64,000 nt of DNA from a virus (Duplodnaviria; Caudoviricetes). Under the pieces are notes generated by a model. It was not told the DNA's origin and made no database searches. It was given only the letters and a program-made list of their open reading frames with translations. This document shows, piece by piece, positions 3,788 through 31,665 of this stretch (its first letter is position 1; the number at the start of each line of letters is the position of its first letter). Location of the stretch: positions 1-64,000 of IMG/VR virus record IMGVR_UViG_3300005544_000001; one strand, given 5' to 3'. The position numbers and the translations under genes are program-made.

Positions 3788-4107
3788 GGTTGCTGGAGAA
3801 AATCAATCGCTTCCCCCCGCGCATCGTTCGGTTGATCGCCGCCGATCTCACGACGCGACAGATCGCGCTGCGTTCCGGCATCCCGCGTTCGACCGTCCAC
3901 CAAGTGTTTTTGAAGGATGACTGGAACCAGGTCACGAATGAAGTCACTGACCGAATTACCATGGCCTGTGGCGTCAACTTACTCACGCACAAGCGGCACA
4001 GGCAGAATCTAAAGAATAGGTTGCGGTCGATTGGTAAACTCGCCAAGAGGATCAAGCCGACCCAACGGAAGATGTTGAACCGGCTGCTATCGGTCAAAGC
4101 CGCATAG
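3784..4107 (+). CDS. Helix-turn-helix DNA-binding protein
   Basis: LTTRQIALRSGIPRSTVHQVF is HTH-like. ATGA coupling to the upstream gene. Confidence 0.6.
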   Translation: MRLLEKINRFPPRIVRLIAADLTTRQIALRSGIPRSTVHQVFLKDDWNQVTNEVTDRITMACGVNLLTHKRHRQNLKNRLRSIGKLAKRIKPTQRKMLNRLLSVKAA

Positions 4108-16151: not shown

Positions 16152-16423
16152 AACGCCGTTCATTTTTCAGCCGGATTGCAGGGTTCGTCGCCGCTGTGGC
16201 GATTGCGCCAGAAATTGCGTTTCGGTCGAAGTTGCCACTTCCGGGTGCGGCGCATTTGCAGTTGGAATCCGTCCAAGTGGCATTTTGGACACAGGACGCT
16301 CGCTATTCGAGATGCGTGGATCCTGAATACGAGAAACTTCTCCGTAATCTGGAGAGCCGACCAACATCAGCCCTTAACGTGCCGAACATGTTCGATTTCC
16401 TGAAAGAGCACACCAAGGCATGA
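16148..16423 (+). CDS. Small protein with a twin-arginine-like N-terminus
   Basis: MKRRSFFSRIAGFVAAVAIAP. ATGA overlaps at both ends. Confidence 0.6.
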   Translation: MKRRSFFSRIAGFVAAVAIAPEIAFRSKLPLPGAAHLQLESVQVAFWTQDARYSRCVDPEYEKLLRNLESRPTSALNVPNMFDFLKEHTKA

Positions 16424-18855
16424 AGTTCGACCAACTCGACAACCAGCCGTGCCTGCTCCCCCAGGTGAACGAGGAATCGTGTGAAAGCACGAGGCTACCG
16501 GTCCAGGAGGGGCGCCTCGAGCTGCGTCCCGAGGTTGCCGTCGTGGCAGTTCTGGGCACCGTACAATATCGAACCTTCCTGATCGCCAACGGCGTCGAAC
16601 GCGAGGTCACATCCGGGCTCAGCTATCGCTCTGGCAGCACCGTAATCGCAGTCATCGGCGCCATCGGCGGCAACGCCACGGGCATCTCGGTCGGCATAGT
16701 CACGATCTCGGTCGAATGGCAGGGCCTCGAGGCGTTCGCCCAGCTTCAGGTCGTTGACTCCTGCGACAACATTTCGAACGGGCTGGAGATCGTCATCGAC
16801 AACTCGGAGTCGATGAATCAGGCGTTTGGCGCGCCATACGGCACCAAGCTTGATTTCGCGAAGTTCCTCGCCAAACAGTTCGCCGGAGAGGTCGACGTGC
16901 GCAAGGACATCGTTGGGCTGACCACGTTCGCCGTGTCGGGCCAGGTTGTGGCGCCTTTGACGGCCGATAACATCGCCGTCGGGACCGCCATCATGGGTGT
17001 CGGCTTCGTTCCGGAGCAGACAGACATCCATGCGGGGCTCGAAACGGCCATCGCGGAACTCGCCGCGGCGAACGTCGACCGCCGCGTTATCCTGCTGATC
17101 ACGGACGGCCAGCATAACGACGACATCGAGCCGCTGCAGACAGCCCTCCAGTTCCGGTCCGGCGGCGGGGTTCTCATCGTCATTGGCCTGCGCGCCGGCC
17201 TGGAGGCGTTCATGCGCCTAGAGAAACTCGCCAACGGCGGTTTCTTCATCTCGGCCTACGACGGGCCCACCGCGGAGGACGCCAAACGTTACGTGAGCGG
17301 GTTGAAAGGCTACCTGTGCGCTGGCAACTGTTGCCCGGAAGGTGACGTCATCGTTGGCCAGGGCAGGCTCGACTACGAGGATTGGCTCAACTGGGATAAC
17401 ATCGGAAACGTCGACCTGATTGGGAACGGATTTTACGATCTTATCCCAGGGCACGGTCTATTCGTGGATCTCGTGGGAAGCTCGGCGCCATGGCAGGGCG
17501 GGTTGATCAGCAAGAAATCGTTCACGTTCCAAAACGGCGTCAACTACAAGCTGAGTTACAAACTGGCCGGCAATCAGCGCGCGGACGCCACGGGCTACTC
17601 GGTCAAGGTCAATGCCGGCAGCGTCGCGACCGCCACGCACGCGATGAACGATTGGCGCCAGGACTTTACGACCTACGACTTGAGTTTCGTGGGCGATGGC
17701 ACTTCCGGCCAACTGATCTTCATCCAGGAAACGGTCTCGCCTGCGCCGGCGGCTCAAGCCTTCGGGGTTTTGCTTGATGACGTCACGCTCATCAACGATG
17801 ACACGGACGAAATTCTGTTCACCGAAAGTTTCGACAACGAGAATCTGACTTACGTGCCGCCCGCTTGCGGCATGGGCACAGTCTACGGACAGGGTTACGG
17901 TGGCGGTTACGCCTACGGGACGTGCTGCTACGGTTACGGGTGCCTGGCTGAACCGGTCAAACAGCAGAACCCGGATCCCATGCCGCCAACGGATCCCGAG
18001 ACGGAGCCCGATCCGTTCTGGATCAGCACGCAGTCCTACACGGCAAGCTGCCCCGTTGGAACCACGGGCGCCGACGTGACACGCTCGGCGAGCTACAAGA
18101 GTTTCATCAGCGCGGCCGATGCCAACGCAAAAGCCCTGGCGCTGGCTCAGACCGCAGCCGAGGCGGCGCTGAACTGTGTGAGCCCGCCCGTCAACGGCGA
18201 TCTCATCAACATGCACGCCATCCGCGGCAGGCATACGACAAAGATAGGCTTTGCCGCATTCGGAAAGACGTCCGGCGACGTCTGGAACGCATGGAGCGCC
18301 TCCGATTACAACAACGATACCCTGTTGAAATCGGACGGGACCGCCTCCTTCGTCACCATCCGAAAGTGTGAAGTCGGCGATTTCACGCAAACGGAACTCG
18401 GCGCGGTCAATTTCGATGTGTCGCTCGACCATCCGGACGCCATGTACAAGATGGGCCAGGCGTTCTATCGCAACGATTCAATCACGCCGAAGGACGAGGC
18501 GCTGTTCTTCGACGGATTACCCGAGGGCAATTATGAGGTCTACGTTTACGGCCACGGCGCTGACAACGCGCTGCAGGTCGGCCATTACCAGGTTCGCACC
18601 GGTAAACTCACAGGAGATCTGGCATCTGGATTCGTGCTCGATCCTTTCACCAACACCGTTTACCCAACGCTCGACACGTCGAACACGGACAGCTACCTCG
18701 ACACCGCCTGGGCCGAAAACGTCCAGTTCGTGAAATACTCAGTCACGATCGGCGCAGGGCAGACCGGCATCTGCATCATTTCCGCCAGCGCATCCGGCGT
18801 GGATCCCGGGCGAATCAGCGTGCTCATGGGCGTGCAGATTCACCGCTTGACATAA
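16420..18855 (+). CDS. vWA-domain structural protein with additional beta-sandwich domains
   Basis: MIDAS-like IVIDNSESM, TDIHAGLETA, ILLITDGQHN, then carbohydrate-binding-like segments and a YTASCP...ANAKALALAQ module. Confidence 0.75.
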   Translation: MKFDQLDNQPCLLPQVNEESCESTRLPVQEGRLELRPEVAVVAVLGTVQYRTFLIANGVEREVTSGLSYRSGSTVIAVIGAIGGNATGISVGIVTISVEWQGLEAFAQLQVVDSCDNISNGLEIVIDNSESMNQAFGAPYGTKLDFAKFLAKQFAGEVDVRKDIVGLTTFAVSGQVVAPLTADNIAVGTAIMGVGFVPEQTDIHAGLETAIAELAAANVDRRVILLITDGQHNDDIEPLQTALQFRSGGGVLIVIGLRAGLEAFMRLEKLANGGFFISAYDGPTAEDAKRYVSGLKGYLCAGNCCPEGDVIVGQGRLDYEDWLNWDNIGNVDLIGNGFYDLIPGHGLFVDLVGSSAPWQGGLISKKSFTFQNGVNYKLSYKLAGNQRADATGYSVKVNAGSVATATHAMNDWRQDFTTYDLSFVGDGTSGQLIFIQETVSPAPAAQAFGVLLDDVTLINDDTDEILFTESFDNENLTYVPPACGMGTVYGQGYGGGYAYGTCCYGYGCLAEPVKQQNPDPMPPTDPETEPDPFWISTQSYTASCPVGTTGADVTRSASYKSFISAADANAKALALAQTAAEAALNCVSPPVNGDLINMHAIRGRHTTKIGFAAFGKTSGDVWNAWSASDYNNDTLLKSDGTASFVTIRKCEVGDFTQTELGAVNFDVSLDHPDAMYKMGQAFYRNDSITPKDEALFFDGLPEGNYEVYVYGHGADNALQVGHYQVRTGKLTGDLASGFVLDPFTNTVYPTLDTSNTDSYLDTAWAENVQFVKYSVTIGAGQTGICIISASASGVDPGRISVLMGVQIHRLT

Positions 18856-18875
18856 ACGGTTCAATCGGGTTTTCT
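18843..18875 (+). promoter_or_regulatory. Promoter of the leader/RAMP/array locus
   Basis: CCGCTTGACA at 18843-18852, 17 nt spacer, TTTTCT, then ATG at 18882. Confidence 0.55.
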
Positions 18876-18881
18876 ACGGTC

Positions 18882-19052
18882 ATGCGTTTAGAGCCGCAAT
18901 GGTCCCTCCAAACACTTTGCACCCGCTGCCGTCTGGCGGCGATTTCAAATCAGCCGCGCTCTAACGTTCGGGAGTCGGGTGCTTTTCCAAATGCGCAGAA
19001 CGGTTTGGTTTGGTATGGCAAGCCCTCTGGCGCATTACTCCAAAACACATGA
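18882..19052 (+). CDS. Leader ORF (56 aa) in a structured leader, coupled to the RAMP gene
   Basis: MRLEPQWSLQTLCTRCRLAAISNQPRSNVRESGAFPNAQNGLVWYGKPSGALLQNT. Its TGA overlaps the ATG at 19049. Confidence 0.45.
   Translation: MRLEPQWSLQTLCTRCRLAAISNQPRSNVRESGAFPNAQNGLVWYGKPSGALLQNT
19002..19021 (+). repeat. Short GGY-NN tract upstream of the RAMP gene
   Basis: GGTTT GGTTT GGTAT GGCAA, four in-register pentamers of the same type as the downstream array. Confidence 0.65.
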
Positions 19053-19681
19053 AGACAGCAGAAAAAAAGCTCACTGCCATCGGCGGCGAGTCACCAACGA
19101 ACGGCGCACAGCATGGGATCGAACTTCAAATTCCATTCCGATGCGAAGTGACGGTTGAAGGTGTTGCTCCAATTCTTTTCCACGCGTGGAACGTGGAGAG
19201 CGTCGATTCAAAATCAAAAGCCAAAAAAGGCTCTGCCGAAAAGAAAAGTGACGACGTGGAAAGCTACGTTTACCGGAATGATGAAAAGGAGGTTTGCATT
19301 CCAGGCGAGTATTTACGAGGCGCGATCGTAAATGCTGCAAAATTCCAACAAGATCCTCGCAGCCCAAGGAAGTCGGCTGCTGATCTTTTCAAGGCCGCGA
19401 TCGTCTCGCTGACGCCGCTCGCTTCCTTGGGGGCAAAGGATTGGGATTATTTGGACAAGAGAAGGGTCACAATCCAGCGAAACGCGATAACACGCTGTCG
19501 CCCTGCGATGCGCGAGGGCTGGTCTGCAAAATTTATCCTCATGGTGAATTTGCCGGAGTACGTAGGTCAGGAACTTTTGAACGCTACCATCCAGCAGGCC
19601 GGAAAGCTGATTGGTCTTGGTGACTTTCGTCCGAGTTTCGGGCGATTCATCGTCACACGGTTTGTCGTGTTGAACGATTAA
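19049..19681 (+). CDS. Stand-alone Cas7/Csm3-like RAMP-fold protein (Vipr-like), 210 aa
   Basis: VTVEGVAPILFH (beta-1), VCIPGEYLRGAIVNAA (RAMP IPGxxLKGA-like motif), TRCRP, and a C-terminal Gly-rich loop GKLIGLGDFRPSFGRF. No other cas genes in the window. Confidence 0.8.
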   Translation: MKTAEKKLTAIGGESPTNGAQHGIELQIPFRCEVTVEGVAPILFHAWNVESVDSKSKAKKGSAEKKSDDVESYVYRNDEKEVCIPGEYLRGAIVNAAKFQQDPRSPRKSAADLFKAAIVSLTPLASLGAKDWDYLDKRRVTIQRNAITRCRPAMREGWSAKFILMVNLPEYVGQELLNATIQQAGKLIGLGDFRPSFGRFIVTRFVVLND

Positions 19682-19684
19682 TTC

Positions 19685-20184
19685 GGTGTCGGTGTGGTTG
19701 GGCAAGGCTCGGCGTGTTGAGGCTTGGTGCGGTGGCATCGAGATGTGGCCATGCAAGGTGTGGTTCGGTCAGCCGTGGCGCGGTCAGGTTCGGTCAGGCG
19801 CGGTTTGGTCCACTACGGTTTGGCCGGGTGGGGTGAGGCGCGTTCAGGTAAGCATGGGCGAGCTACGGTACGGTCTGGTTCGGGACTCGAAAGAGTCCGG
19901 TCGGGTGAGGTCGGGCGGGGTATGGCAGGGTGAGCTATGGCACGGTGGGTTTGGGTAGGATTGAGTCGGGTAAGGCAAGGCGGGCATGGGTATGGTACGG
20001 TTCGGGCGCGAAAGCGCCGGTATGGTTTGCTATGGCGGGGCCGGGCGTGGCCAGGTGAGGTTCGGCGGGGTGTGGTAATCCCAGGCACGGTCGGACGTGG
20101 TAAGCTTCCGCGCGGTGCGGTTCGCAATGGCAAGCTATGGTTTGGTGGCGGGGCGTTGCCTCTTGACAAAGGCTTCGCCCCGCC
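19685..20184 (+). ncRNA. GGY-NN pentamer array, candidate guide-RNA precursor
   Basis: Four tracts in unbroken 5-nt register: 19691-19730 (8 units), 19747-19881 (27), 19899-20003 (21), 20019-20143 (25). 62 of 81 units start GGY. Hairpins GGACTC-GAAA-GAGTCC (19883-19898) and GGCGC-GAAA-GCGCC (20005-20018), plus a terminal hairpin at 20147-20184. Confidence 0.85.
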
Positions 20185-20192
20185 TTCAGCAT
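20147..20192 (+). promoter_or_regulatory. Array-closing hairpin that also carries the -35 of the next operon
   Basis: GGCGGGGCG-TT-GCCT-CTTGACAA-AGGC-TT-CGCCCCGCC. TTGACA at 20163-20168 lies in the loop, and CAGCAT follows after an 18 nt spacer. Confidence 0.55.
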
Positions 20193-20203
20193 CAAGATTC
20201 CAG

Positions 20204-20950
20204 ATGACAGCAACTTTTAAACACAGCGGCGACCTGGGCGATATTATTTACAGCCTTCCGACAGTTAGGCATTTTGGTGGTGGGGATTTTTGGATCGCGG
20301 CTTCAAACTTCACGAGGGTTGAACTGACGCCAAACAACTGGCATGGCATTGACCGTTTGTTAGCCCGCCAACCGTATATAAGAAGCGTTCGCTCATATCG
20401 AATGGGAGAGTACGCGGTTTTCAATTTGGACTCGTTTCGCGGCCCGCTGAATCTTGCGCTTCGAAAACATGAGCAGATGGACAAGAGCCTCTGCGATTGG
20501 GTTTTGGAGACCCACAACGTTCCCCTGACCGCGAAGGAGACCGCATGGCTCACCGTCGAGCCGAAGACCGTTGCTCCGGTCGTCATTAACCGCACGGGCG
20601 CAGGACGGACGCGCAACGCCTGCTATCACAATTTCAAATTTCCGTGGCACAAAGTCTGGAAGAAATACGGACGTGACGCGGTGTTCATCGGGACGTGGGC
20701 AGAGTACGAGATGTTTTGCGGATCGTGCGGCGAGGTGCCGTATCACGAGACGAAGGATCTGCTCGAGGCCGCGCAGGTGATTGCCGGCGCCAAACTGTTC
20801 GTAGGGAACCAGAGCGTCTGCCACGCGATTGCCCAGGGCTTGTTTCAGCGTGTCCTGCTCGAAGTCTGGGTTGAGGGCGCCAATTCGACGTTCCTGCGTG
20901 AAGGCGTGACGAATGGTTTCGATGAGAAGGTGGAGTTGCCTGAAATATGA
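20204..20950 (+). CDS. Glycosyltransferase family 9-like (heptosyltransferase-like)
   Basis: True start MTATFKHSGDLGDII; LLEAAQVIAGAKLFVGNQSVCHAIAQGL. The track ORF extends spuriously into the array. Confidence 0.8.
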   Translation: MTATFKHSGDLGDIIYSLPTVRHFGGGDFWIAASNFTRVELTPNNWHGIDRLLARQPYIRSVRSYRMGEYAVFNLDSFRGPLNLALRKHEQMDKSLCDWVLETHNVPLTAKETAWLTVEPKTVAPVVINRTGAGRTRNACYHNFKFPWHKVWKKYGRDAVFIGTWAEYEMFCGSCGEVPYHETKDLLEAAQVIAGAKLFVGNQSVCHAIAQGLFQRVLLEVWVEGANSTFLREGVTNGFDEKVELPEI

Positions 20951-21363
20951 AGGAGAAAACCGTTCTCGTTACTGGTTGCTTCGACGTGCTCCACCGCGGG
21001 CATATTGAGCTTTTGTATATCGCCGCCGAACACGGAAAAGTCGTTGTGGGCATCAATGACGACGAGAGTGTTCAAAAACTCAAGGGACCGAAAAGGCCCG
21101 TGAATAATGAGGTGGACAGGCTGTTTCTGATAGAAGCACTTGGCAGCGTGACCTACGGGTTCATCATTTTCGACGTGAAAGTGGACAAGGCGATCATGGA
21201 CATCAAGCCGGACATTTGGATGAAAGGCGGCGATTACACGATGGAAACTCTGAACAAGGACGAGGTTGAGGCTGCGCGGAATGTTGGAGCGGAGATCATC
21301 ATTATTCCAACGTGCAAGGGCTATTCGACAACCGAGACACTCAAGAAACTGGAGGCAGAATGA
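20947..21363 (+). CDS. Cytidylyltransferase-family nucleotidyltransferase (HldE/RfaE domain II-like)
   Basis: GCFDVLHRGH (HxGH), VGINDDESVQKLKGPKRPVN, KGGDY, GYSTT. Confidence 0.9.
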   Translation: MKEKTVLVTGCFDVLHRGHIELLYIAAEHGKVVVGINDDESVQKLKGPKRPVNNEVDRLFLIEALGSVTYGFIIFDVKVDKAIMDIKPDIWMKGGDYTMETLNKDEVEAARNVGAEIIIIPTCKGYSTTETLKKLEAE

Positions 21364-21869
21364 GCGAAACAGCCAAACACCGCGATCAGGTCGCGGAATT
21401 CACTGTGGGCAACGGCGTGGACCTTGGATCATCCGGGGACGGGATCGTGCCATGGGCAATCCAGGTTGACCTGCCGACCGACGAATATCTCCGATACAAC
21501 CCAAAGCGCCCGCAGGATGCGATACACTGGCGCGGCAGCGCGCTTCACCTGCCGTTTCAGGATCGGGTGCTCGACTTCGTCCATTCGTCGCATCTCCTCG
21601 AGGACTTCGAAGACTGGGGCCCGATACTCAAGGAATGGGACCGGGTGCTGAAGATCGGCGGTTACATGATCATCGCCGTGCCGGACCATGCTCGGTTCCG
21701 CGCGGCCGTCGCCCGCGGGCAGGGGGACAATCTCAATCACAAGCACGAATCGCACGTCGGAGAGCTGCCGAAGTATCTGCACACTTACAAAACACTCATC
21801 GACAGGTTTGTGAGCAGTGATCCAAACGAGTATTCGATCCTCTATGTCGGCGTCAAAAATCCTGTATGA
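21360..21869 (+). CDS. Class I SAM-dependent methyltransferase
   Basis: GVDLGSSG, LPFQDRVLDFVHSSHLLED, WDRVLKIGG. Confidence 0.85.
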   Translation: MSETAKHRDQVAEFTVGNGVDLGSSGDGIVPWAIQVDLPTDEYLRYNPKRPQDAIHWRGSALHLPFQDRVLDFVHSSHLLEDFEDWGPILKEWDRVLKIGGYMIIAVPDHARFRAAVARGQGDNLNHKHESHVGELPKYLHTYKTLIDRFVSSDPNEYSILYVGVKNPV

Positions 21870-22588
21870 AAGCACAAGTTATCACCGTCTCTAGCCACGA
21901 TCCCGTCCAGTCCTATTATCACTTCGGCGCCTTCAAAAAGAGCCTGGCGAGGTTCGGCGTGGAGCCGACCATCCTCGGCCCGGGCGAGCCGTGGCGAGGG
22001 CTGATGACCAAACCGCGGCTTCTGCAGAAGTTTTTGAGCGAGAGCCGGCATAAAAGCGACAACATTATCGTGACCGATGCCTGGGACATCATTTTCACCG
22101 CGCATCCCGACGAGGTGTGGGCGGCGAAGGAATTCGATGCGCCGGACGCCGTGATGTTCAACGCCGAGATGGGTTGCTTCCCGCGGGCTGATCTGGCTGA
22201 CAGGTTCCCTGACCCGGGCACCCCTTACCGATTCCCGAACTCAGGGTTCATGGCCGGCACGGCGAGCCAAATCCTTGCCATCCTCGACAGCATGAACCTG
22301 AACGCCATTCGAGATGACACGCAGGAGCCCGACGGCTCATGGTTCAACCCGAACGATCAGGAGTATTACACGCTGGCGTTCCTCCAGCAGCCGGTGAAGA
22401 TGGTTCTGGATACGCACGCGCGCGTTTGTCAGTCATTCTCTGGAAGTGCGCTCAGCGATTACGTCCTAGTCGATGAGGGTCGCGTCACAAACAAGCGTAC
22501 GGGTTGCAAACCACTCGTTTGGCATTTCAACGGGAACTCGAAGAACGACATTTTGCCTGAACTCCTGAAGCACAACCACCTTGCATGA
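21866..22588 (+). CDS. GT-A glycosyltransferase, similar to the PLOD/LH3-type GT domain
   Basis: IIVTDAWD, FNAEMGCFP, YRFPNSGFMAG, NDQEYYT, VWHFNG. Confidence 0.8.
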   Translation: MKAQVITVSSHDPVQSYYHFGAFKKSLARFGVEPTILGPGEPWRGLMTKPRLLQKFLSESRHKSDNIIVTDAWDIIFTAHPDEVWAAKEFDAPDAVMFNAEMGCFPRADLADRFPDPGTPYRFPNSGFMAGTASQILAILDSMNLNAIRDDTQEPDGSWFNPNDQEYYTLAFLQQPVKMVLDTHARVCQSFSGSALSDYVLVDEGRVTNKRTGCKPLVWHFNGNSKNDILPELLKHNHLA

Positions 22589-28085: not shown

Positions 28086-29662
28086 TGCCTACGCCAGTTT
28101 CGCCGTCTGAAATTAAATCCACTATCCCGTCCGCGAGCGGCAGCTTTTGCGCGAAGTTCCTTCAGGTGCTGCAACTCCCGAAACTGTTTTCGACCTGGTA
28201 CAGCTACGTTTACAACGAGGATCTGTCCTTCACGGATGACTTCAAAGCCGATCTCTGTCTCGTGCGATGCACATGCAGCGGCGGGGGCAGCACTCCGCCC
28301 GACGGTGGCGTCCCTGGCGGACCGATCGCGCCGACCAACGTTCAGGCCACGGACGGCGCATTCAGCACGAAGGTCGTCGTCACATGGAATTCGGTGACGG
28401 CCGCCACGAGCTACGAGATCTTGCGCGGTACAGTGAACGATTTCTCGATGGCGACCGTCATCGGCACGACGACGGGCAATCTGGTGGTGACTTTCGAGGA
28501 CACGGCCGTCACGGAGGCGCAGGTCTACTACTACTGGGTGCGCGCGTATAACGGCACGCTCCGCGGGGCGTCCAGTTCTCCGGATACCGGCTACGCTGTC
28601 GGCGCTTTGTCAGCGGTCACGGATCTCAAGGCCAGCCGCGGGTTCTACCAGTCGACCGTGACTGGGCTCACGACCGGGACAGGCACGATCGCGCTCGTGT
28701 TCACGGCCGCTTCTGGCGCCAATGCCTACGACATCTATCGCGGCACTACCAACGTGTTCTCGGCGGCAACGAAGATCGATTCGAACCGAATGCCGTTCGA
28801 TACTTCCAGGAAGACAACGCAATGCGTTCCTACCCCATGCACAAGTCCGATTTTCGTGAATAACGGCGGGCATTTGTTGTATTACGACAAACCGGCGAGC
28901 ATCGCCCAAAAGTATTACTACTGGGTCGTCGCCAAGATGGTTTCCGGGTCAATCGTGCAGGCGGTTTCTGAGGCTTCGAACACTGCGTATGGCTGGATCG
29001 TCCTCGACAGCACGGCCGGCACGCAGGTTCTGGGCTACGACATCGTTGCCCATGCCTCGCCCGTCCCGAACTCGAGGACAAGGGCCTACGTCGTCCTTGT
29101 TGGGCCAACGGCCGGCGGCGCCGGCGGCAACGACTCGTTTGGGGGTGGTGGTGGCGGCGGCGGGGCGATCATCGCTGGCTACTTCAACATGGTGGCGGGC
29201 CCCAACCGTCGCTGGAAAATGATCACGAGTTCGGTCGCCGGCGGGGCGTCGGCAGCCAACGGGACCGATTCGATCGTCGCTGAACTTCAATATGACGACG
29301 GCGGCGGCATTTTTGCCACAATCCTGGACACCTCGATTGCCGGCAAAGGTCTGTGGAATGCCGGTGGCGGCGGCGCCGGCGGCGCCGGGTCAGTCGGCTC
29401 TGTAATCGGAGCGGTGACCGATCCCGAGACCGAGCCCGGGTTCGCGGGGGAAGCCGCGTCCGGAACGTTTGGCGGCCGCGGCGGATGCGATTTCGGGTTC
29501 CTGCGGTCAAACCCTCACAACTTCCCGAACGCGTTCAACATCACCACGGAGACGACCAGGTTAACCCAGGGCGGCGGCGGTTCGGATGCGCTGCCTGGCG
29601 CCGGGGCCTCCGCCGATGGCGGCATCGGGTCGACCGGTTACGCAATCATCGTCTATTTCTGA
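28085..29662 (+). CDS. Tail fibre-like protein with two FN3-like domains and a glycine-rich C-terminal domain
   Basis: PTNVQATDG...VTWNSV..ATSYEILRG...YYYWVRAYN, a second similar unit, then GGGGGG-rich repeats. Confidence 0.75.
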   Translation: MPTPVSPSEIKSTIPSASGSFCAKFLQVLQLPKLFSTWYSYVYNEDLSFTDDFKADLCLVRCTCSGGGSTPPDGGVPGGPIAPTNVQATDGAFSTKVVVTWNSVTAATSYEILRGTVNDFSMATVIGTTTGNLVVTFEDTAVTEAQVYYYWVRAYNGTLRGASSSPDTGYAVGALSAVTDLKASRGFYQSTVTGLTTGTGTIALVFTAASGANAYDIYRGTTNVFSAATKIDSNRMPFDTSRKTTQCVPTPCTSPIFVNNGGHLLYYDKPASIAQKYYYWVVAKMVSGSIVQAVSEASNTAYGWIVLDSTAGTQVLGYDIVAHASPVPNSRTRAYVVLVGPTAGGAGGNDSFGGGGGGGGAIIAGYFNMVAGPNRRWKMITSSVAGGASAANGTDSIVAELQYDDGGGIFATILDTSIAGKGLWNAGGGGAGGAGSVGSVIGAVTDPETEPGFAGEAASGTFGGRGGCDFGFLRSNPHNFPNAFNITTETTRLTQGGGGSDALPGAGASADGGIGSTGYAIIVYF

Positions 29663-31665
29663 TGCCTTGCGATTCGAGCATTCCAATTGTCCCGGTCAGC
29701 GGTTTTTTGGATCGCCGCAGCACGGTCGATTTGGTGCCATTCGGGGGCTATCGCCGGGCCGACAACGTAGATGTCACCACCAAGCAGCGCCTGTGTCGCG
29801 CCCGCGGGTGGACCAAACATCGCGACGCGGACCCTTACAACAATCAGGACCTGCACAATCAGCTCGTCGTCCCGGGGCTCGAGCAGTCGCCGACCTTGCT
29901 CTATCAGGCCCGCACAGGTGCTGGCTTCACGAAACTGTTCGCGGCCACACAGAACCGGATTTATTCGGAGGTACCAGCCACGGGCAACTGGCGGTTGCTT
30001 TCCGACGAGTTTGGCGGTGAACCAGAGGATTGTTCGGAAACGCTGTGGAGCGCCGGACATGTCGGCCAGATCGTCGTTTTCAGTAACAACGTTGATGCAC
30101 CGGTCTCGACGTTCATCGATCAACCTCCGATCGAGCCCAACAGCCAAAGCGTGAGCCCCATTCGAGACTTGGAGCGGCTCAACGTGACGCGGGTTGGGCT
30201 CGTCATCGCGTGGAACAACGTGATGTTCTACATGGACGTCGAACAGGACGGGGTCCGCGTCCGAAATCGCGTGCTGTGGAGCGATTACAAGCGTCCGCTC
30301 TCGATCGTACCCAACAAGGGCATCAGCCTGGCCGGCACGAGCGATTTGCTGTCAGGCGAGATCATCCTCGGCGCGGCGCCCATGGCCGACGCGCTCATGA
30401 TTTATACGAGCATGAGGATCTGGGAGGTGCGCGTCAGCGGCGATGACAACGTGTTCTCGTTCAACAAACGGTACACGCACGAAGAGGGCAGCCGATGTCT
30501 GGCCTACAAACGCACGCTTGTAACGACTGGCTCAAGTCATTATTACATGGGACGAGACGGGATTTACCGCTACTCGTTTTATGTCACGGAACCGGAACTT
30601 GTTGAGTATATCCATCGGGCGAGTGCCGTCATTTTTGACGACATCAACACGGCTGCGTGCAATGCGCATTGTGCGGAGTTTTTCCCCGATCGGCGACAGG
30701 TTTGGTTCTCGTGGGCGCGCGCCGGCGAGGCGTGTCCTGGCAATACGCTGGTTGTCGGGACCGAGTTTCCATTTTGCTCTGTCATCGACGAAGGTTTCAC
30801 CGCGTTCGTTAACACGGAACCGCACAATAACCTGATCCTGCGCGATTGGATTCGGGACCTCTGCATCTGCACCACGGCGGAGCTTGTCGAGAACGGGTTC
30901 GGATTCATCAACGAAGGCGGTTACTGCACTCCCCAGAGTGACCCGGAATGCCCGACGCGGCCGCACTCGTTTTACACGCAGACGCCGCGCTACGAGGCGG
31001 ACATCGACGTCACAACCGAGGAATGGACCCAGGCCACGCCCGATGCGGACTCGTTTGCGTCCCTGTTCCAGACGCTGACAGTTGATCAGCTTTGCAACAC
31101 GGAATTCCTGGCCGGCGAATGCAACGCCAGCGCGACCTTCGTCATGGCCAGCAGTCATGACAAATGCCTCAAGGACGCCGCAGAAGTGTTTTACCGTGAA
31201 CACTGCACGTCCACGGTCGGCTGTGGGACCTACTCGAAGGACGGCTACAAGAGCCTGCTGACGTCCGGGGCCCTGCATTTCAACGCGCCTGACCGGGAAA
31301 AGATTGCGTCCTGCTTTCAGGTCGAGGCGCACCCGGAACCGGCAACGGTTCCTGGGCAGATGATATTTCGAATTGGGGTGGCAACGCAGGCCATCGACCC
31401 GATCACGGCGTCCGGGCGCTGCATGATCGCCTGGGAGGAACAGGACCCGTTCGTGCTCGAGTGCCAAAGTGACCTGACGCTGGCTCAATCCCGGGCTGAA
31501 GGCACGTTTCCGGACCAGCCGTTTGCCTGGCCGCTGTTTGCCAAGGGTTTTTACCTGTATTACGAGATCGAGATCGGCAATCCGCGCTCGACACCGCGCG
31601 ACACCGGCGCCGCCGTCTGCATTTCGCGCTACGATCTGACGGCCCGGCAGTTGAGCAAGTGTTGA
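29662..31665 (+). CDS. Tail nozzle / stabilisation protein (P22 gp10 or T7 gp12-like), putative
   Basis: True start MPCDSSIP at 29662. 667 aa with beta-propeller-like pattern (NRVLWSD, IILGAAPM..ALMIYT, HYYMGRDGIY). Confidence 0.7.
   Translation: MPCDSSIPIVPVSGFLDRRSTVDLVPFGGYRRADNVDVTTKQRLCRARGWTKHRDADPYNNQDLHNQLVVPGLEQSPTLLYQARTGAGFTKLFAATQNRIYSEVPATGNWRLLSDEFGGEPEDCSETLWSAGHVGQIVVFSNNVDAPVSTFIDQPPIEPNSQSVSPIRDLERLNVTRVGLVIAWNNVMFYMDVEQDGVRVRNRVLWSDYKRPLSIVPNKGISLAGTSDLLSGEIILGAAPMADALMIYTSMRIWEVRVSGDDNVFSFNKRYTHEEGSRCLAYKRTLVTTGSSHYYMGRDGIYRYSFYVTEPELVEYIHRASAVIFDDINTAACNAHCAEFFPDRRQVWFSWARAGEACPGNTLVVGTEFPFCSVIDEGFTAFVNTEPHNNLILRDWIRDLCICTTAELVENGFGFINEGGYCTPQSDPECPTRPHSFYTQTPRYEADIDVTTEEWTQATPDADSFASLFQTLTVDQLCNTEFLAGECNASATFVMASSHDKCLKDAAEVFYREHCTSTVGCGTYSKDGYKSLLTSGALHFNAPDREKIASCFQVEAHPEPATVPGQMIFRIGVATQAIDPITASGRCMIAWEEQDPFVLECQSDLTLAQSRAEGTFPDQPFAWPLFAKGFYLYYEIEIGNPRSTPRDTGAAVCISRYDLTARQLSKC

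Follow-up and report, generated by a model that had tools for sequence, protein, structure and literature searches.

VIPR (Viral Interference Programmable Repeat) systems exert a CRISPR-like, RNA-guided silencing of genes and have been described in four preprints of 2026, the first of which (10.64898/2026.04.26.720920) reports in its text that every Vipr protomer binds one pentamer and that the exposed NN dinucleotides read the DNA as NN-x-NN-x. The VIPR of Escherichia phage SUSP1 is assigned there to type II, and its structures have been determined (10.64898/2026.04.26.720927; PDB 36pp). In the SUSP1 protein the residues D177, W178, R179, R138, E71 and H17 hold the bases G1, G2 and Y3 (10.64898/2026.04.26.720927). 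The text of the preprints also presents other layouts, namely staggered arrays, arrays interspersed with hammerhead ribozymes (types I and V) and single vrRNAs. Moreover, six vap genes are named for seven VIPR types (10.64898/2026.04.26.720920), so that a vap gene may not be required. Experiments on the family have so far concerned elements of E. coli and Pseudomonas.

We have analyzed a stretch of 64,000 nucleotides of phage DNA (the window), in which the region 19691-20148 very probably represents a vrRNA array belonging to a VIPR system carried by the phage. The gene upstream of it matches SUSP1 Vipr and retains the residues that read GGY, which identifies the locus as VIPR, and the kind of RNA-guided system found here is thus already known. 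The features of the cassette are collected in Table 1. The pentamer tracts flank vipr on its own strand, with 83 units downstream and 4 upstream, and the downstream array begins 10 nt past the vipr stop. A vWA protein is encoded upstream of vipr, and a 248-aa protein followed by sugar-modification genes downstream; the relatives have other neighbours. No vap gene was found beside vipr at this locus. The phage was detected only in soil and rhizosphere runs, none of the listed runs with the locus being recorded as RNA, and four DNA runs yielded contigs identical to the window without variants. No close relatives were present in the collection genome_contigs, and hence no host was assigned.

Table 1. 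Features of the VIPR cassette (positions in the window)
Feature	Position	Strand	Remarks
Whole cassette	18916-20184	+	leader, short upstream tract, vipr, downstream array
Conserved box TTTGCACC	18916-18923	+	leader; TTTGCAC invariant in 10/10 aligned upstream regions of the subclade
Conserved box GGGTGCTTT	18977-18985	+	before upstream tract; GTGCTT invariant in 10/10 upstream regions
Upstream tract GGTTT GGTTT GGTAT GGCAA	19002-19021	+	4 units
vipr, 210 aa	19049-19681	+	ATG at 19049; RAMP/Cas7-like
Tract 1	19691-19735	+	9 pentamers, 8 canonical GGY
Linker CATCGAGATGT, 11 nt	19736-19746	+	shifts register by +1
Tract 2	19747-19881	+	27 pentamers, 21 canonical, last unit GGTTC
Hairpin 1, GGGACTCGAAAGAGTCC	19882-19898	+	G + GGACUC-GAAA-GAGUCC, -11.2 kcal/mol
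Tract 3	19899-20003	+	21 pentamers, 16 canonical, last unit GGTTC
Hairpin 2, GGGCGCGAAAGCGCC	20004-20018	+	G + GGCGC-GAAA-GCGCC, -11.3 kcal/mol
Tract 4	20019-20148	+	26 pentamers, 19 canonical
Terminal stem-loop GGCGGGGCG ... CGCCCCGCC	20147-20184	+	9-bp outer stem; array end

The array is composed of GGY-NN pentamers in a strict 5-nt register. Of the 83 units, 78 have G at position 1 of the pentamer, 67 have G at position 2 and 80 have T or C at position 3, while positions 4 (G27/A23/T18/C15) and 5 (21/21/21/20) are nearly evenly filled. Canonical GGY occurs in 64 units; the other 19 are degenerate. The pattern exceeds chance by a wide margin. When the 64 kb are scanned for period-5 power in 200-nt windows, the eight top-scoring ones begin at positions from 19651 to 20001, and the maximum of 13.1 compares with 0.68 for the median and 2.30 for the 99th percentile. 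For GGY, the best single-phase count in the region is 36; over 2000 shuffles the average was 11.1 and the highest count 20. An earlier note on this DNA had divided the array into tracts, each with a distinct NN string, and had claimed that the register holds through the non-GGY units. The parse into four tracts agrees on both points, as the phase of GG is constant per tract and shifts at the linkers only. The NN strings are those listed earlier plus two units, the ninth of tract 1 and the twenty-sixth of tract 4 (both GGTGG). The NN content, which had been called high-entropy, indeed uses 15 of the 16 dinucleotides and amounts to 3.75 of 4 bits. The same holds for the relatives (109 tracts, 1580 units), in which, as the earlier note had predicted, NN is more variable than GGY: the entropy per pentamer position is 0.51, 0.97 and 1.37 bits for GGY versus 1.96 and 2.00 bits for NN. 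Because of this variation of NN, Tandem Repeats Finder misses the array and reports just two short period-10 rows there. A search of Rfam with positions 18800-20800 (E<=5) returned no family, and hence no hammerhead or other known ribozyme.

The assignment of the upstream gene follows from several comparisons. A TTG start listed at 19010 is unsupported by the relatives, the alignments of which begin at MKT... The protein matches PDB entry 36pp_D ('SUSP1 Vipr protein') with an E-value of 4.2e-9 (residues 87-215 in the numbering of the listed 223-aa ORF), and phrog_4652 with an E-value of 1.4e-19; Pfam and NCBIfam gave no model for it. Among the candidate proteins 7433 of 7638 score E<=0.001, and a tblastn search with the protein matched 122 phage records, phiSUSP1 and its relatives included. 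Relatives of roughly 78 kb (P0041, P0014, P0068 and P0006) have a Vipr at 77-88% identity. In the alignment to SUSP1, D177, R179, R138 and E71 are all conserved, and W178 is replaced by F, by which the aromatic character is kept. Over 23 relatives no change occurs at D192, R151 or P152, and hardly any at F193 or R194. The SUSP1 residue H17 falls outside the aligned stretch; its counterpart is likely the invariant H45 in the motif LFHAWN. In addition, the AF2 model of Vipr (pLDDT 80.8) has type VII Cas7 and type III Csm3 as its top folds in the PDB, with E-values of about 1e-6 and a probability of 1.00.

Neither the short upstream tract nor the terminal stem-loop figured in the earlier note. 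The upstream tract is flanked by an inverted repeat and has 4 units, where those of relatives have 7-16. In the near-identical fragment L009, the flanks of which are about 97% identical, the tract differs and has 11 units. The tract here thus apparently represents a truncated upstream vrRNA. The two boxes of the leader are strongly conserved in the subclade. Box TTTGCACC is a candidate promoter element; a scan with the sigma-70 consensus called no promoter at 18916-18923. For box GGGTGCTTT our guess would be that it forms the 5' end or the leader of the upstream vrRNA.

Two linkers had been described earlier as GAAA hairpins in the shared context GGTTC-...-GGT, and GGGACTCGAAAGAGTCC and GGGCGCGAAAGCGCC fit that description. 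Hairpin 1 is identical in the relatives L008, L014 and L037, and the stem of hairpin 2 is one of 15 distinct stems found in the same sequence context. More specifically, within the subclade (phages from soil, rhizosphere and other environments with a Vipr at least 67% identical to the 210-aa protein) tracts end in GGTTC-G followed by a short GG...CC hairpin, and 26 hairpins of this kind, representing 15 different complementary stems, were collected from 11 loci. Their loops are GAAA in 17 cases, GCAA, TTAG and TTTT in two cases each, and three others once each; GGTTCG precedes 18 of the 26 and GGTAT follows 11. The set was chosen for perfect stems and its pairing is 100% by construction, so that weight attaches only to the number of different stems and to the controls. 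Changes on both sides of the stem were observed in 28 of 72 stem cells, versus 7.0 +/- 2.2 after shuffling (pair counts were taken from loop-anchored 12-mers), and the stems therefore covary. Moreover, a hairpin follows the motif GGT[TCA]CGGG at 26 of its 29 occurrences in arrays versus 8 of 29 elsewhere, and no such hairpin was found outside arrays in 654,510 bases. The hairpins are spaced 67-133 nt apart in 14 of 15 intervals, with 13-27 units of tract between them. The comparison of related arrays that had been called for therefore yields conserved hairpins, a retained GGY and variable NN.

The other two structured elements are less uniform. A weak GCAT-CGAG-ATGT element had been noticed between tracts 1 and 2, and the linker CATCGAGATGT with its flanks does fold as described (-9.9 kcal/mol over the 31 nt of 19726-19756); its stem is imperfect, though, and no conserved counterpart was found in the relatives. 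The terminal stem-loop (-34.1 kcal/mol over 20139-20195) lacks a U run after it and was not called in a terminator scan; the arrays of relatives close with stem-loops and then T runs. It may serve as a terminator or cap tract 4 at its 3' end. Hairpins 1 and 2 and the terminal stem-loop are all present in the minimum-energy fold of 519 nt. We propose that hairpins 1 and 2 are the 3' caps (tails) of tracts 2 and 3. That the hairpins may delimit guides, as the earlier note had surmised, is supported only indirectly, by their being conserved, covarying, array-specific and regularly spaced, and it fits a 3' tail of the published style.

The core idea of the same note, guides that are read through gapped NN patterns, is largely right: a gapped guide code in NN on a scaffold of GGY corresponds to the mechanism published for VIPR, and the adjoining gene is a Vipr homologue. 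The gapped patterns that it had asked for were searched in the relatives, where 707 ten-unit windows were compared with 610,686 bases at a threshold of at least 18 of 20 matches. Only a skip of 1 nt exceeds the shuffles: 13 windows reached the threshold versus 0 shuffled, against 1 versus 1 for skip 0, 0 versus 0 for skip 2 and 0 versus 1 for skip 3. All but one of the 13 matches fall in vipr genes of other loci. One vrRNA scores 24/28 on three rival vipr genes and 19/28 on its own vipr. vrRNAs aimed at other VIPR systems are already on record in the texts published so far (10.64898/2026.04.26.720920; 10.64898/2026.10.15.759431). The target-matching blocks of the relatives span 10-14 units inside longer tracts. 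The suggestion that GCY/GCA variant units may mark the borders of sub-guides is not supported, since non-GGY units sit inside the matched blocks and pair in register; in four guide-target pairs of relatives they match the target at 7/8, 5/6, 13/16 and 6/6. The upstream vrRNA of the relative L023 matched position 4082 of the window at 18/20, but over the full tract at 22/38 only, and was put down to chance.

The phage's own tracts gave no target above chance in any of the collections searched. In its own genome of 78,391 bp the best skip-1 matches (13/18, 30/54, 23/42 and 29/52) lie inside the shuffled ranges, and an absence of self-targets has been published for other VIPRs as well (text of 10.64898/2026.04.26.720920). 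The loci of the relatives together with the own genome (693,092 letters, both strands, spacer letters included) contained nothing above the nulls, nor did four related viral genomes of 198,138 bases in total (L024 not among them) contain anything above the shuffles. The exact ten-unit seeds T3[1-10], T2[3-12], T2[15-24], T3[11-20] and T4[14-23] had no matches in the collection viral_contigs. The nine-unit seed T4[4-12] matched L054 and L055, which are identical in sequence. This match failed to continue beyond the seed (29/52), its skipped base fell on the first codon position of a 460-aa ORF of the opposite strand, and it was considered chance. Tract 1 as a whole (18/18) matched a tyrosine-integrase gene in L056 on the sense strand and in wobble phase, and a satellite recombinase is among the targets in the published VIPR texts. 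Nevertheless, this match is a lead at most and attributable to chance, as 8 unrelated genomes in 596 Gb match as well; these are bacterial, none of the matches lies in an integrase, and their number equals the chance rate. The nearest relatives of the L056 integrase come from human-gut and Firmicutes phages, whereas the VIPR phage is from soil and rhizosphere. Finally, with the guides read as protein against 120 Vipr homologues, T3[1-10] scored 16/20 on 'AVISLTPLSS'; the vipr genes that encode this motif reach only 12-13/20 at the DNA level, and the match was dropped. The exact seeds comprised 9-10 units and the collections may lack the mobile elements of the host, and the blank outcome is therefore weak evidence.

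Considering the homology to the solved SUSP1 protein, Vipr would polymerise along the transcript with one protomer per pentamer, its pockets locking G1, G2 and Y3 and leaving each NN dinucleotide exposed. The filament would then read double-stranded DNA as NN-x-NN-x, the skipped base usually being the codon wobble, and would silence transcription of a rival mobile element. The end of a tract, GGTTC-G with a 4-6-bp GG...CC hairpin and mostly a GAAA loop, would provide the 3' tail and be comparable to the pseudoknot of SUSP1, which caps the filament and indicates where assembly begins; as such a tail it would separate neighbouring guides. Non-GGY units stay in register and still add NN pairing. 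Given the limited extent of the matched blocks in relatives, two or more guides may be contained in each tract of 21-27 units. We infer that the locus is expressed, processed at the hairpins and used in silencing. Tentatively, the subclade might represent an undescribed VIPR architecture, without vap and with tracts of 13-27 pentamers that are each capped by a hairpin, in a cassette that is swapped and serves as an arms-race module. If so, the filaments would be about twice the published length, with up to 27 protomers and a footprint of 80 bp, or else several abutting guides would share one cap and non-GGY scaffold units would be tolerated. The apparent swap of the cassette between otherwise 97%-identical phages and the attack on rival vipr genes would then be the marks of a fast-evolving arms-race module.

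It is rather unlikely, in our view, that the array is a VIPR array the hairpins of which act as attenuators or RNA-stability elements and not as delimiters of guides. The guides would then be cut otherwise, for example by the published 'staggered' processing, or each tract would constitute one very long guide. The border of tracts 1 and 2, which has no canonical hairpin, would be in line with this, as would the fact that the matched blocks in relatives cover only part of longer tracts, and staggered arrays with abutting vrRNAs have been published (in the legend of fig. S18). A terminator scan moreover rates hairpin 2 as terminator-like, owing to the T-rich units that follow it, but GNRA or UUCG loops on stems of 4-6 bp make poor terminators without a U run. 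The constant context and the regular spacing of the hairpins look like a unit boundary, and the layout parallels the tract with 3' tail of the published text (10.64898/2026.04.26.720920), both of which argue for guides delimited by hairpins.

We consider it improbable that the array is decaying or a decoy, binding Vipr without guiding it or acting as a sponge that occupies a rival Vipr. The degenerate units and the 4-unit upstream tract (versus 11 units in the near-identical L009) do suggest that parts of the array may be decaying, and foreign vrRNAs of satellites are reported, in the text of 10.64898/2026.10.15.759431, to redirect Vipr. The blank target search would also agree with a decoy, but carries little weight as indicated above. 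However, none of the 19 degenerate units breaks the register and the two hairpins are intact, which argues for selection, and in relatives the degenerate units pair with targets. Far less probable still is an array that yields no RNA guide at all and is instead a DNA element (phased protein sites or G-quadruplex-prone DNA) or a coding repeat. A GG every 5 nt on one strand would allow two-tetrad quadruplexes, and none of the three forward frames is interrupted within the array; a 5-nt period, however, is incompatible with a codon repeat. The array is always found on the strand of vipr, beside a homologue of a protein that was solved with such RNA, the compensatory changes in the stems point to an RNA structure, and it is with the 1-nt skip alone that the NN of relatives match coding DNA. 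Taken as a guide array of a VIPR system, the locus adds an environmental phage (soil/rhizosphere) to the family. It is a compact test case, with one 210-aa protein and an array of 460 nt and without an accessory gene, in which a minimal tetraloop hairpin replaces the pseudoknot. With it one could test what sets the guide ends, the maximum length of the Vipr filament and the extent to which the scaffold tolerates deviation from GGY. The data on the clade provide an independent and purely computational confirmation of the 1-nt-skip code, and they extend the occurrence of vrRNAs against rival vipr genes to phages other than the enterobacterial ones for which this was reported.

A comparison with known systems puts the locus in perspective. 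TRAP (trp RNA-binding attenuation protein) is a closed 11-mer ring that recognises (G/U)AG and regulates a single operon, the spacers being uninformative. It shares with this locus a conserved triplet with a 2-nt spacer in many repeats read by a protein multimer. An RNA of the TRAP type, or for another ring protein, was dropped as a candidate once the upstream protein had matched Vipr, and there is no TRAP-like gene here. The filaments of Cas7/Csm3 in class 1 CRISPR have, like Vipr, a RAMP fold with one protomer per fixed step of RNA, and in both systems a thumb periodically interrupts the pairing of guide and target. The step is 5 nt in VIPR, with three bases hidden and two read, versus 6 nt with five read in class 1 CRISPR. 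In contrast to the latter, the system here is phage-encoded and lacks long direct repeats and spacers; we found no repeat/spacer array with repeats of at least 20 nt and no nearby cas gene except the RAMP-like vipr.

The correspondence with the VIPR of SUSP1 is far closer. Both are phage-borne and encode a small RAMP-like Vipr, which has a thumb arginine and the conserved G-loop of which reads GDFRPxFGRF here and GDWRPRFGRF in SUSP1, and both have GGY-NN tracts on either side of vipr and on its strand, with a structured 3' element after the tract. In neither case were self-targets found; the SUSP1 system targets a satellite. Nevertheless, the Vipr proteins are only about 29% identical over 129 residues, the 3' element is a 4-6-bp hairpin with mostly a GNRA loop here and a pseudoknot in SUSP1, the tracts of 9, 27, 21 and 26 units compare with 9-16 published, and vap1 adjoins vipr in SUSP1 only. 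As type II (the SUSP1 and P. fulva clades) is characterized by 9-16 repeats, an invariable 3' tail that forms a pseudoknot and vap1, a combination that this locus does not show, we do not file it under type II. In the text of the VIPR preprints, as far as searched, there is no mention of a tetraloop (all four), of a stem-loop (the first three) or of GNRA (the second and third), and in the text of the first (10.64898/2026.04.26.720920) the word hairpin appears once, for the SUSP1 tail. As in other VIPR arrays, a transcript would carry several guides with a device between the guides or at the ends; in the hammerhead-interspersed arrays that device is a ribozyme, whereas here the separators are plain short hairpins.

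The region directly 3' of vipr consists of a run of pentamers that begins past the stop codon of the gene (19679-19681), and in which the first three bases read GGY and the last two (NN) are variable. An earlier note, made from the sequence alone, had described this array as segmented in a 5-nt register, and our parse confirmed that organization: the GG phase is fixed inside every tract and shifts solely at the three linkers. The re-extracted NN strings were identical to those reported there, with one terminal unit gained for each of tracts 1 and 4. Of the 83 units, 78 have G at position 1, 67 have G at position 2 and 80 have a pyrimidine at position 3, and positions 4 and 5 are near-uniform in base composition; canonical GGY is present in 64 units, and the other 19 are degenerate. 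The period-5 signal of the array is unique within the window. The top eight 200-nt windows in period-5 power were all located at the array (maximum 13.1 versus a 99th percentile of 2.30 for the 64 kb), and the in-phase GGY count was 36 versus at most 20 in 2000 shuffles. Tandem Repeats Finder was almost blind to the array because NN varies, and no Rfam family was found at the region.

Features of the VIPR locus and its surroundings (positions in the window)
Feature	Position	Strand	Remark
vWA-domain protein	16420-18855		811 aa, directly 5' of the cassette; weak DUF5977 match
Conserved leader boxes	18916-18923 and 18977-18985
Inverted repeat AATGCGCAG ... CTGGCGCATT	18990-19037		flanks the short upstream tract
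vipr	19049-19681	+	210 aa
Tract 1	19691-19735	+	9 units, in-register parse
Linker, 11 nt	19736-19746		between tracts 1 and 2
Tract 2	19747-19881	+	27 units, in-register parse
Hairpin 1, GAAA loop	19882-19898		GGTTC before, GGT after
Tract 3	19899-20003	+	21 units, in-register parse
Hairpin 2, GAAA loop	20004-20018		GGTTC before, GGT after
Tract 4	20019-20148	+	26 units, in-register parse
Strong terminal stem-loop	20147-20184		end of array
Unassigned 248-aa protein, then sugar-modification genes	20204-22588		3' of the array
Cytidylyltransferase-like protein	within 20204-22588		phrog 'heptose 1-phosphate adenylyltransferase'
SAM methyltransferase	within 20204-22588
PLOD-type glycosyltransferase	within 20204-22588

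Pentamers of this kind also turned up elsewhere. Contigs from the soil/rhizosphere sequencing runs X6 and X8 align to 19696-19734 with 6 differences in 39 bases and then continue as other GGY-NN sequence, so other VIPR arrays are present in the same kinds of samples. A nine-unit in-register run with 6 GGY (GGTTT GGTTC ... GGCAA) lies at 30699-30743, within a 770-aa ORF (29353-31665, + strand); when the genome outside the locus was block-shuffled 20 times, no such run arose. The run at 30699-30743 could be a stray tract resembling a vrRNA or a chance occurrence in coding sequence.

The VIPR (Viral Interference Programmable Repeat) system has been described or used in four 2026 preprints (10.64898/2026.04.26.720920, 10.64898/2026.04.26.720927, 10.64898/2026.10.15.759431 and 10.64898/2026.10.21.760802; hereafter the VIPR preprints). 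According to these preprints, Vipr is a small RAMP-like protein that polymerises on a guide RNA (vrRNA) of GGY/NN pentamers, one protomer per pentamer. The protein encloses GGY, and the NN dinucleotides pair with DNA read as NN-x-NN-x, x usually being the wobble base. The complex silences transcription in rival phages, in satellites and in other VIPR systems.

The vipr ORF adjoins the array on its 5' side and actually starts with the ATG at 19049, which is also where the relatives begin. No family was found for it in Pfam or NCBIfam; its product matches phrog_4652 (E 1.4e-19) and, among solved structures, a single entry, PDB 36pp ('SUSP1 Vipr protein', E 4.2e-9). The SUSP1 contact residues are kept in the alignment (D177=D, W178=F, R179=R, R138=R, E71=E), and the motifs LFHAWN, DPRSPRKS, RxRPA and GDFRPxxGRF are conserved over 23 relatives. 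The best fold matches of an AlphaFold model (pLDDT 80.8) were type VII Cas7 and type III Csm3 (E about 1e-6), in a library older than the Vipr structures. The family comprises 7433 proteins at E<=0.001, and tblastn with Vipr retrieved matches in 122 phage records, phiSUSP1 among them.

The relatives compared were the GenBank phage DSL-LC04 (58% identity), six viral contigs and 46 metagenome loci. In all of them, GGY-NN tracts lie on the same strand as vipr and usually flank the gene on both sides. In the subclade whose Vipr shares at least 67% identity with the present protein, the downstream tracts terminate in GGTTC-G, and a short hairpin with a GG...CC stem comes next. We collected 26 such hairpins across 11 loci; their stems, all perfectly complementary, are of 15 distinct kinds, and the loops are GAAA (17), GCAA, TTAG and TTTT (2 each) and TTCG, TTGG and TTTAT (1 each); none occurred outside arrays in 654,510 bases on both strands. 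Since the set had been picked for perfect stems, two controls were run. In loop-anchored 12-mers, both sides had changed in 28 of 72 stem cells, versus 7.0 +/- 2.2 in shuffles, and a hairpin came after the bare motif GGT[TCA]CGGG at 26 of its 29 occurrences within arrays versus 8 of 29 elsewhere. The motif was not found in the arrays of loci below 67% identity. The hairpin-to-hairpin spacing is 67-133 nt, or 13-27 units, in 14 of 15 intervals. On these comparative grounds, the hairpin behaves like an RNA structure marking a unit boundary, and the proposal of the earlier note that hairpins delimit guides is plausible. By its position it would correspond to the published 3' tail, which in the VIPR preprints caps the filament and sits at the start of assembly.

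The core idea of that note, a gapped guide code held in the NN strings, proved right for the relatives, whose NN strings match DNA under a 1-nt skip. All 707 ten-unit windows of their tracts were compared at skips of 0-3 with 610,686 bases in which the arrays were masked. At skip 1, 13 windows reached at least 18/20 and no shuffled guide did; the counts for windows and shuffled guides were 1 and 1 at skip 0, 0 and 0 at skip 2, and 0 and 1 at skip 3. The 13 windows overlap and originate from five vrRNAs; 12 fall in the vipr genes of other loci, in wobble phase, at the early codons, the LFHxWN motif and the G-loop. The vrRNAs fit their own vipr less well than rival genes, as with the upstream vrRNA of L024, which scores 24/28 against three rival vipr genes and 19/28 against its own. 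This excess checks the code independently in environmental phages and agrees with the published statement that some vrRNAs attack other VIPR systems (VIPR preprints); the conflict of VIPR against VIPR thus also extends to environmental phages. The vrRNAs at L024:9893-9962, L049:880-939, L016:1405-1474 and L034:1505-1569 match, with a 1-nt skip, vipr of the loci L023, L026, L030, L034, L001, L002 and L011.

The GCY/GCA variant units had been suggested to mark sub-guide borders. This is wrong, as such units pair within matched blocks: in four guide-target pairs, the NN of non-GGY units paired as well as that of canonical units (7/8 and 17/20 for L024 on L026, 5/6 and 15/18 for L049 on L001, 13/16 and 10/12 for L016 on L002, 6/6 and 12/20 for L034 on L001). 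The matched blocks of relatives are 10-14 units long, even within longer tracts, and therefore the long tracts of the present array may hold more than one guide.

Tract matches to the phage's own genome did not exceed those of shuffles, and an absence of self-targets is likewise reported for other VIPRs (VIPR preprints). No target was found in the relatives' loci and four related viral genomes, and five exact ten-unit seeds gave no match in the viral contig collection. A nine-unit seed of tract 4 matched one sequence, without extension and out of wobble phase, and was rejected. Tract 1 matches, at 18/18, the sense strand of a tyrosine-integrase gene on the viral contig L056 (825-850, - strand; peptide VCKSVEFAG) with the wobble base skipped, which would fit the published biology. 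We judged this match to be chance, because unrelated bacterial genomes (596 Gb) contain the pattern 8 times, so that about one match is expected in a viral collection of tens of Gb (our estimate of its size), and because the relatives of the integrase are gut Firmicutes phages. As exact seeds of 9-10 units were required, real targets with a mismatch could be missed.

Transcription would start in or before the conserved leader, and the transcript would take in the short upstream tract, the vipr gene and the array before ending at the terminal stem-loop. Vipr would then coat each tract with one protomer for every pentamer, starting at the hairpin cap and growing in the 5' direction. Hairpins would keep neighbouring filaments from running together and may protect or define 3' ends, and each filament would read rival DNA via the 1-nt-skip code and block its transcription. 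This is how we infer transcription, processing and the role of the hairpins at the locus. The sequencing runs listed as containing the locus include none recorded as RNA, and four DNA runs yielded only contigs identical to the window. The inverted repeat around the upstream tract (-19 kcal/mol for the fold of 18990-19050) may form a stem at which the upstream vrRNA is processed, and the metagenome fragment L009 seems to have a similar arm pair around its longer upstream tract.

This fragment (L009:1-1685) aligns to 18053-19701 with about 97% nucleotide identity in the vWA gene and leader. Its vipr is about 57-83% identical per 60-nt block, mostly 62-77%, and its upstream tract counts 11 units versus 4 in the window. 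From this comparison, the VIPR cassette seems either to undergo exchange or to change far more rapidly than the flanking DNA. L009 also encodes the von Willebrand factor A domain protein at 98% identity, and the relative L002 encodes it at 41%. The genes 3' of the array form a sugar-modification module in a phage, whose record totals 78,391 bases. The genes flanking the cassette are not common to the relatives.

In the text of the VIPR preprints, tetraloops are unmentioned in all four, stem-loops in 10.64898/2026.04.26.720920, 10.64898/2026.04.26.720927 and 10.64898/2026.10.15.759431, and GNRA in 10.64898/2026.04.26.720927 and 10.64898/2026.10.15.759431; 'hairpin' is used once, for the SUSP1 tail, in 10.64898/2026.04.26.720920. 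As described there, the seven VIPR types have varied array layouts, and a vrRNA of the studied type II comprises 9-16 repeats plus a conserved 3' tail, which in SUSP1 is a pseudoknot. The present locus does not fit type II, as its tract lengths and tail differ and no accessory (vap) gene adjoins vipr. Judged by its sequence, the locus is a member of the known VIPR family and therefore no discovery of a new kind; its hairpin-capped, vap-less layout with long tracts may represent a variant for which no written description exists yet.
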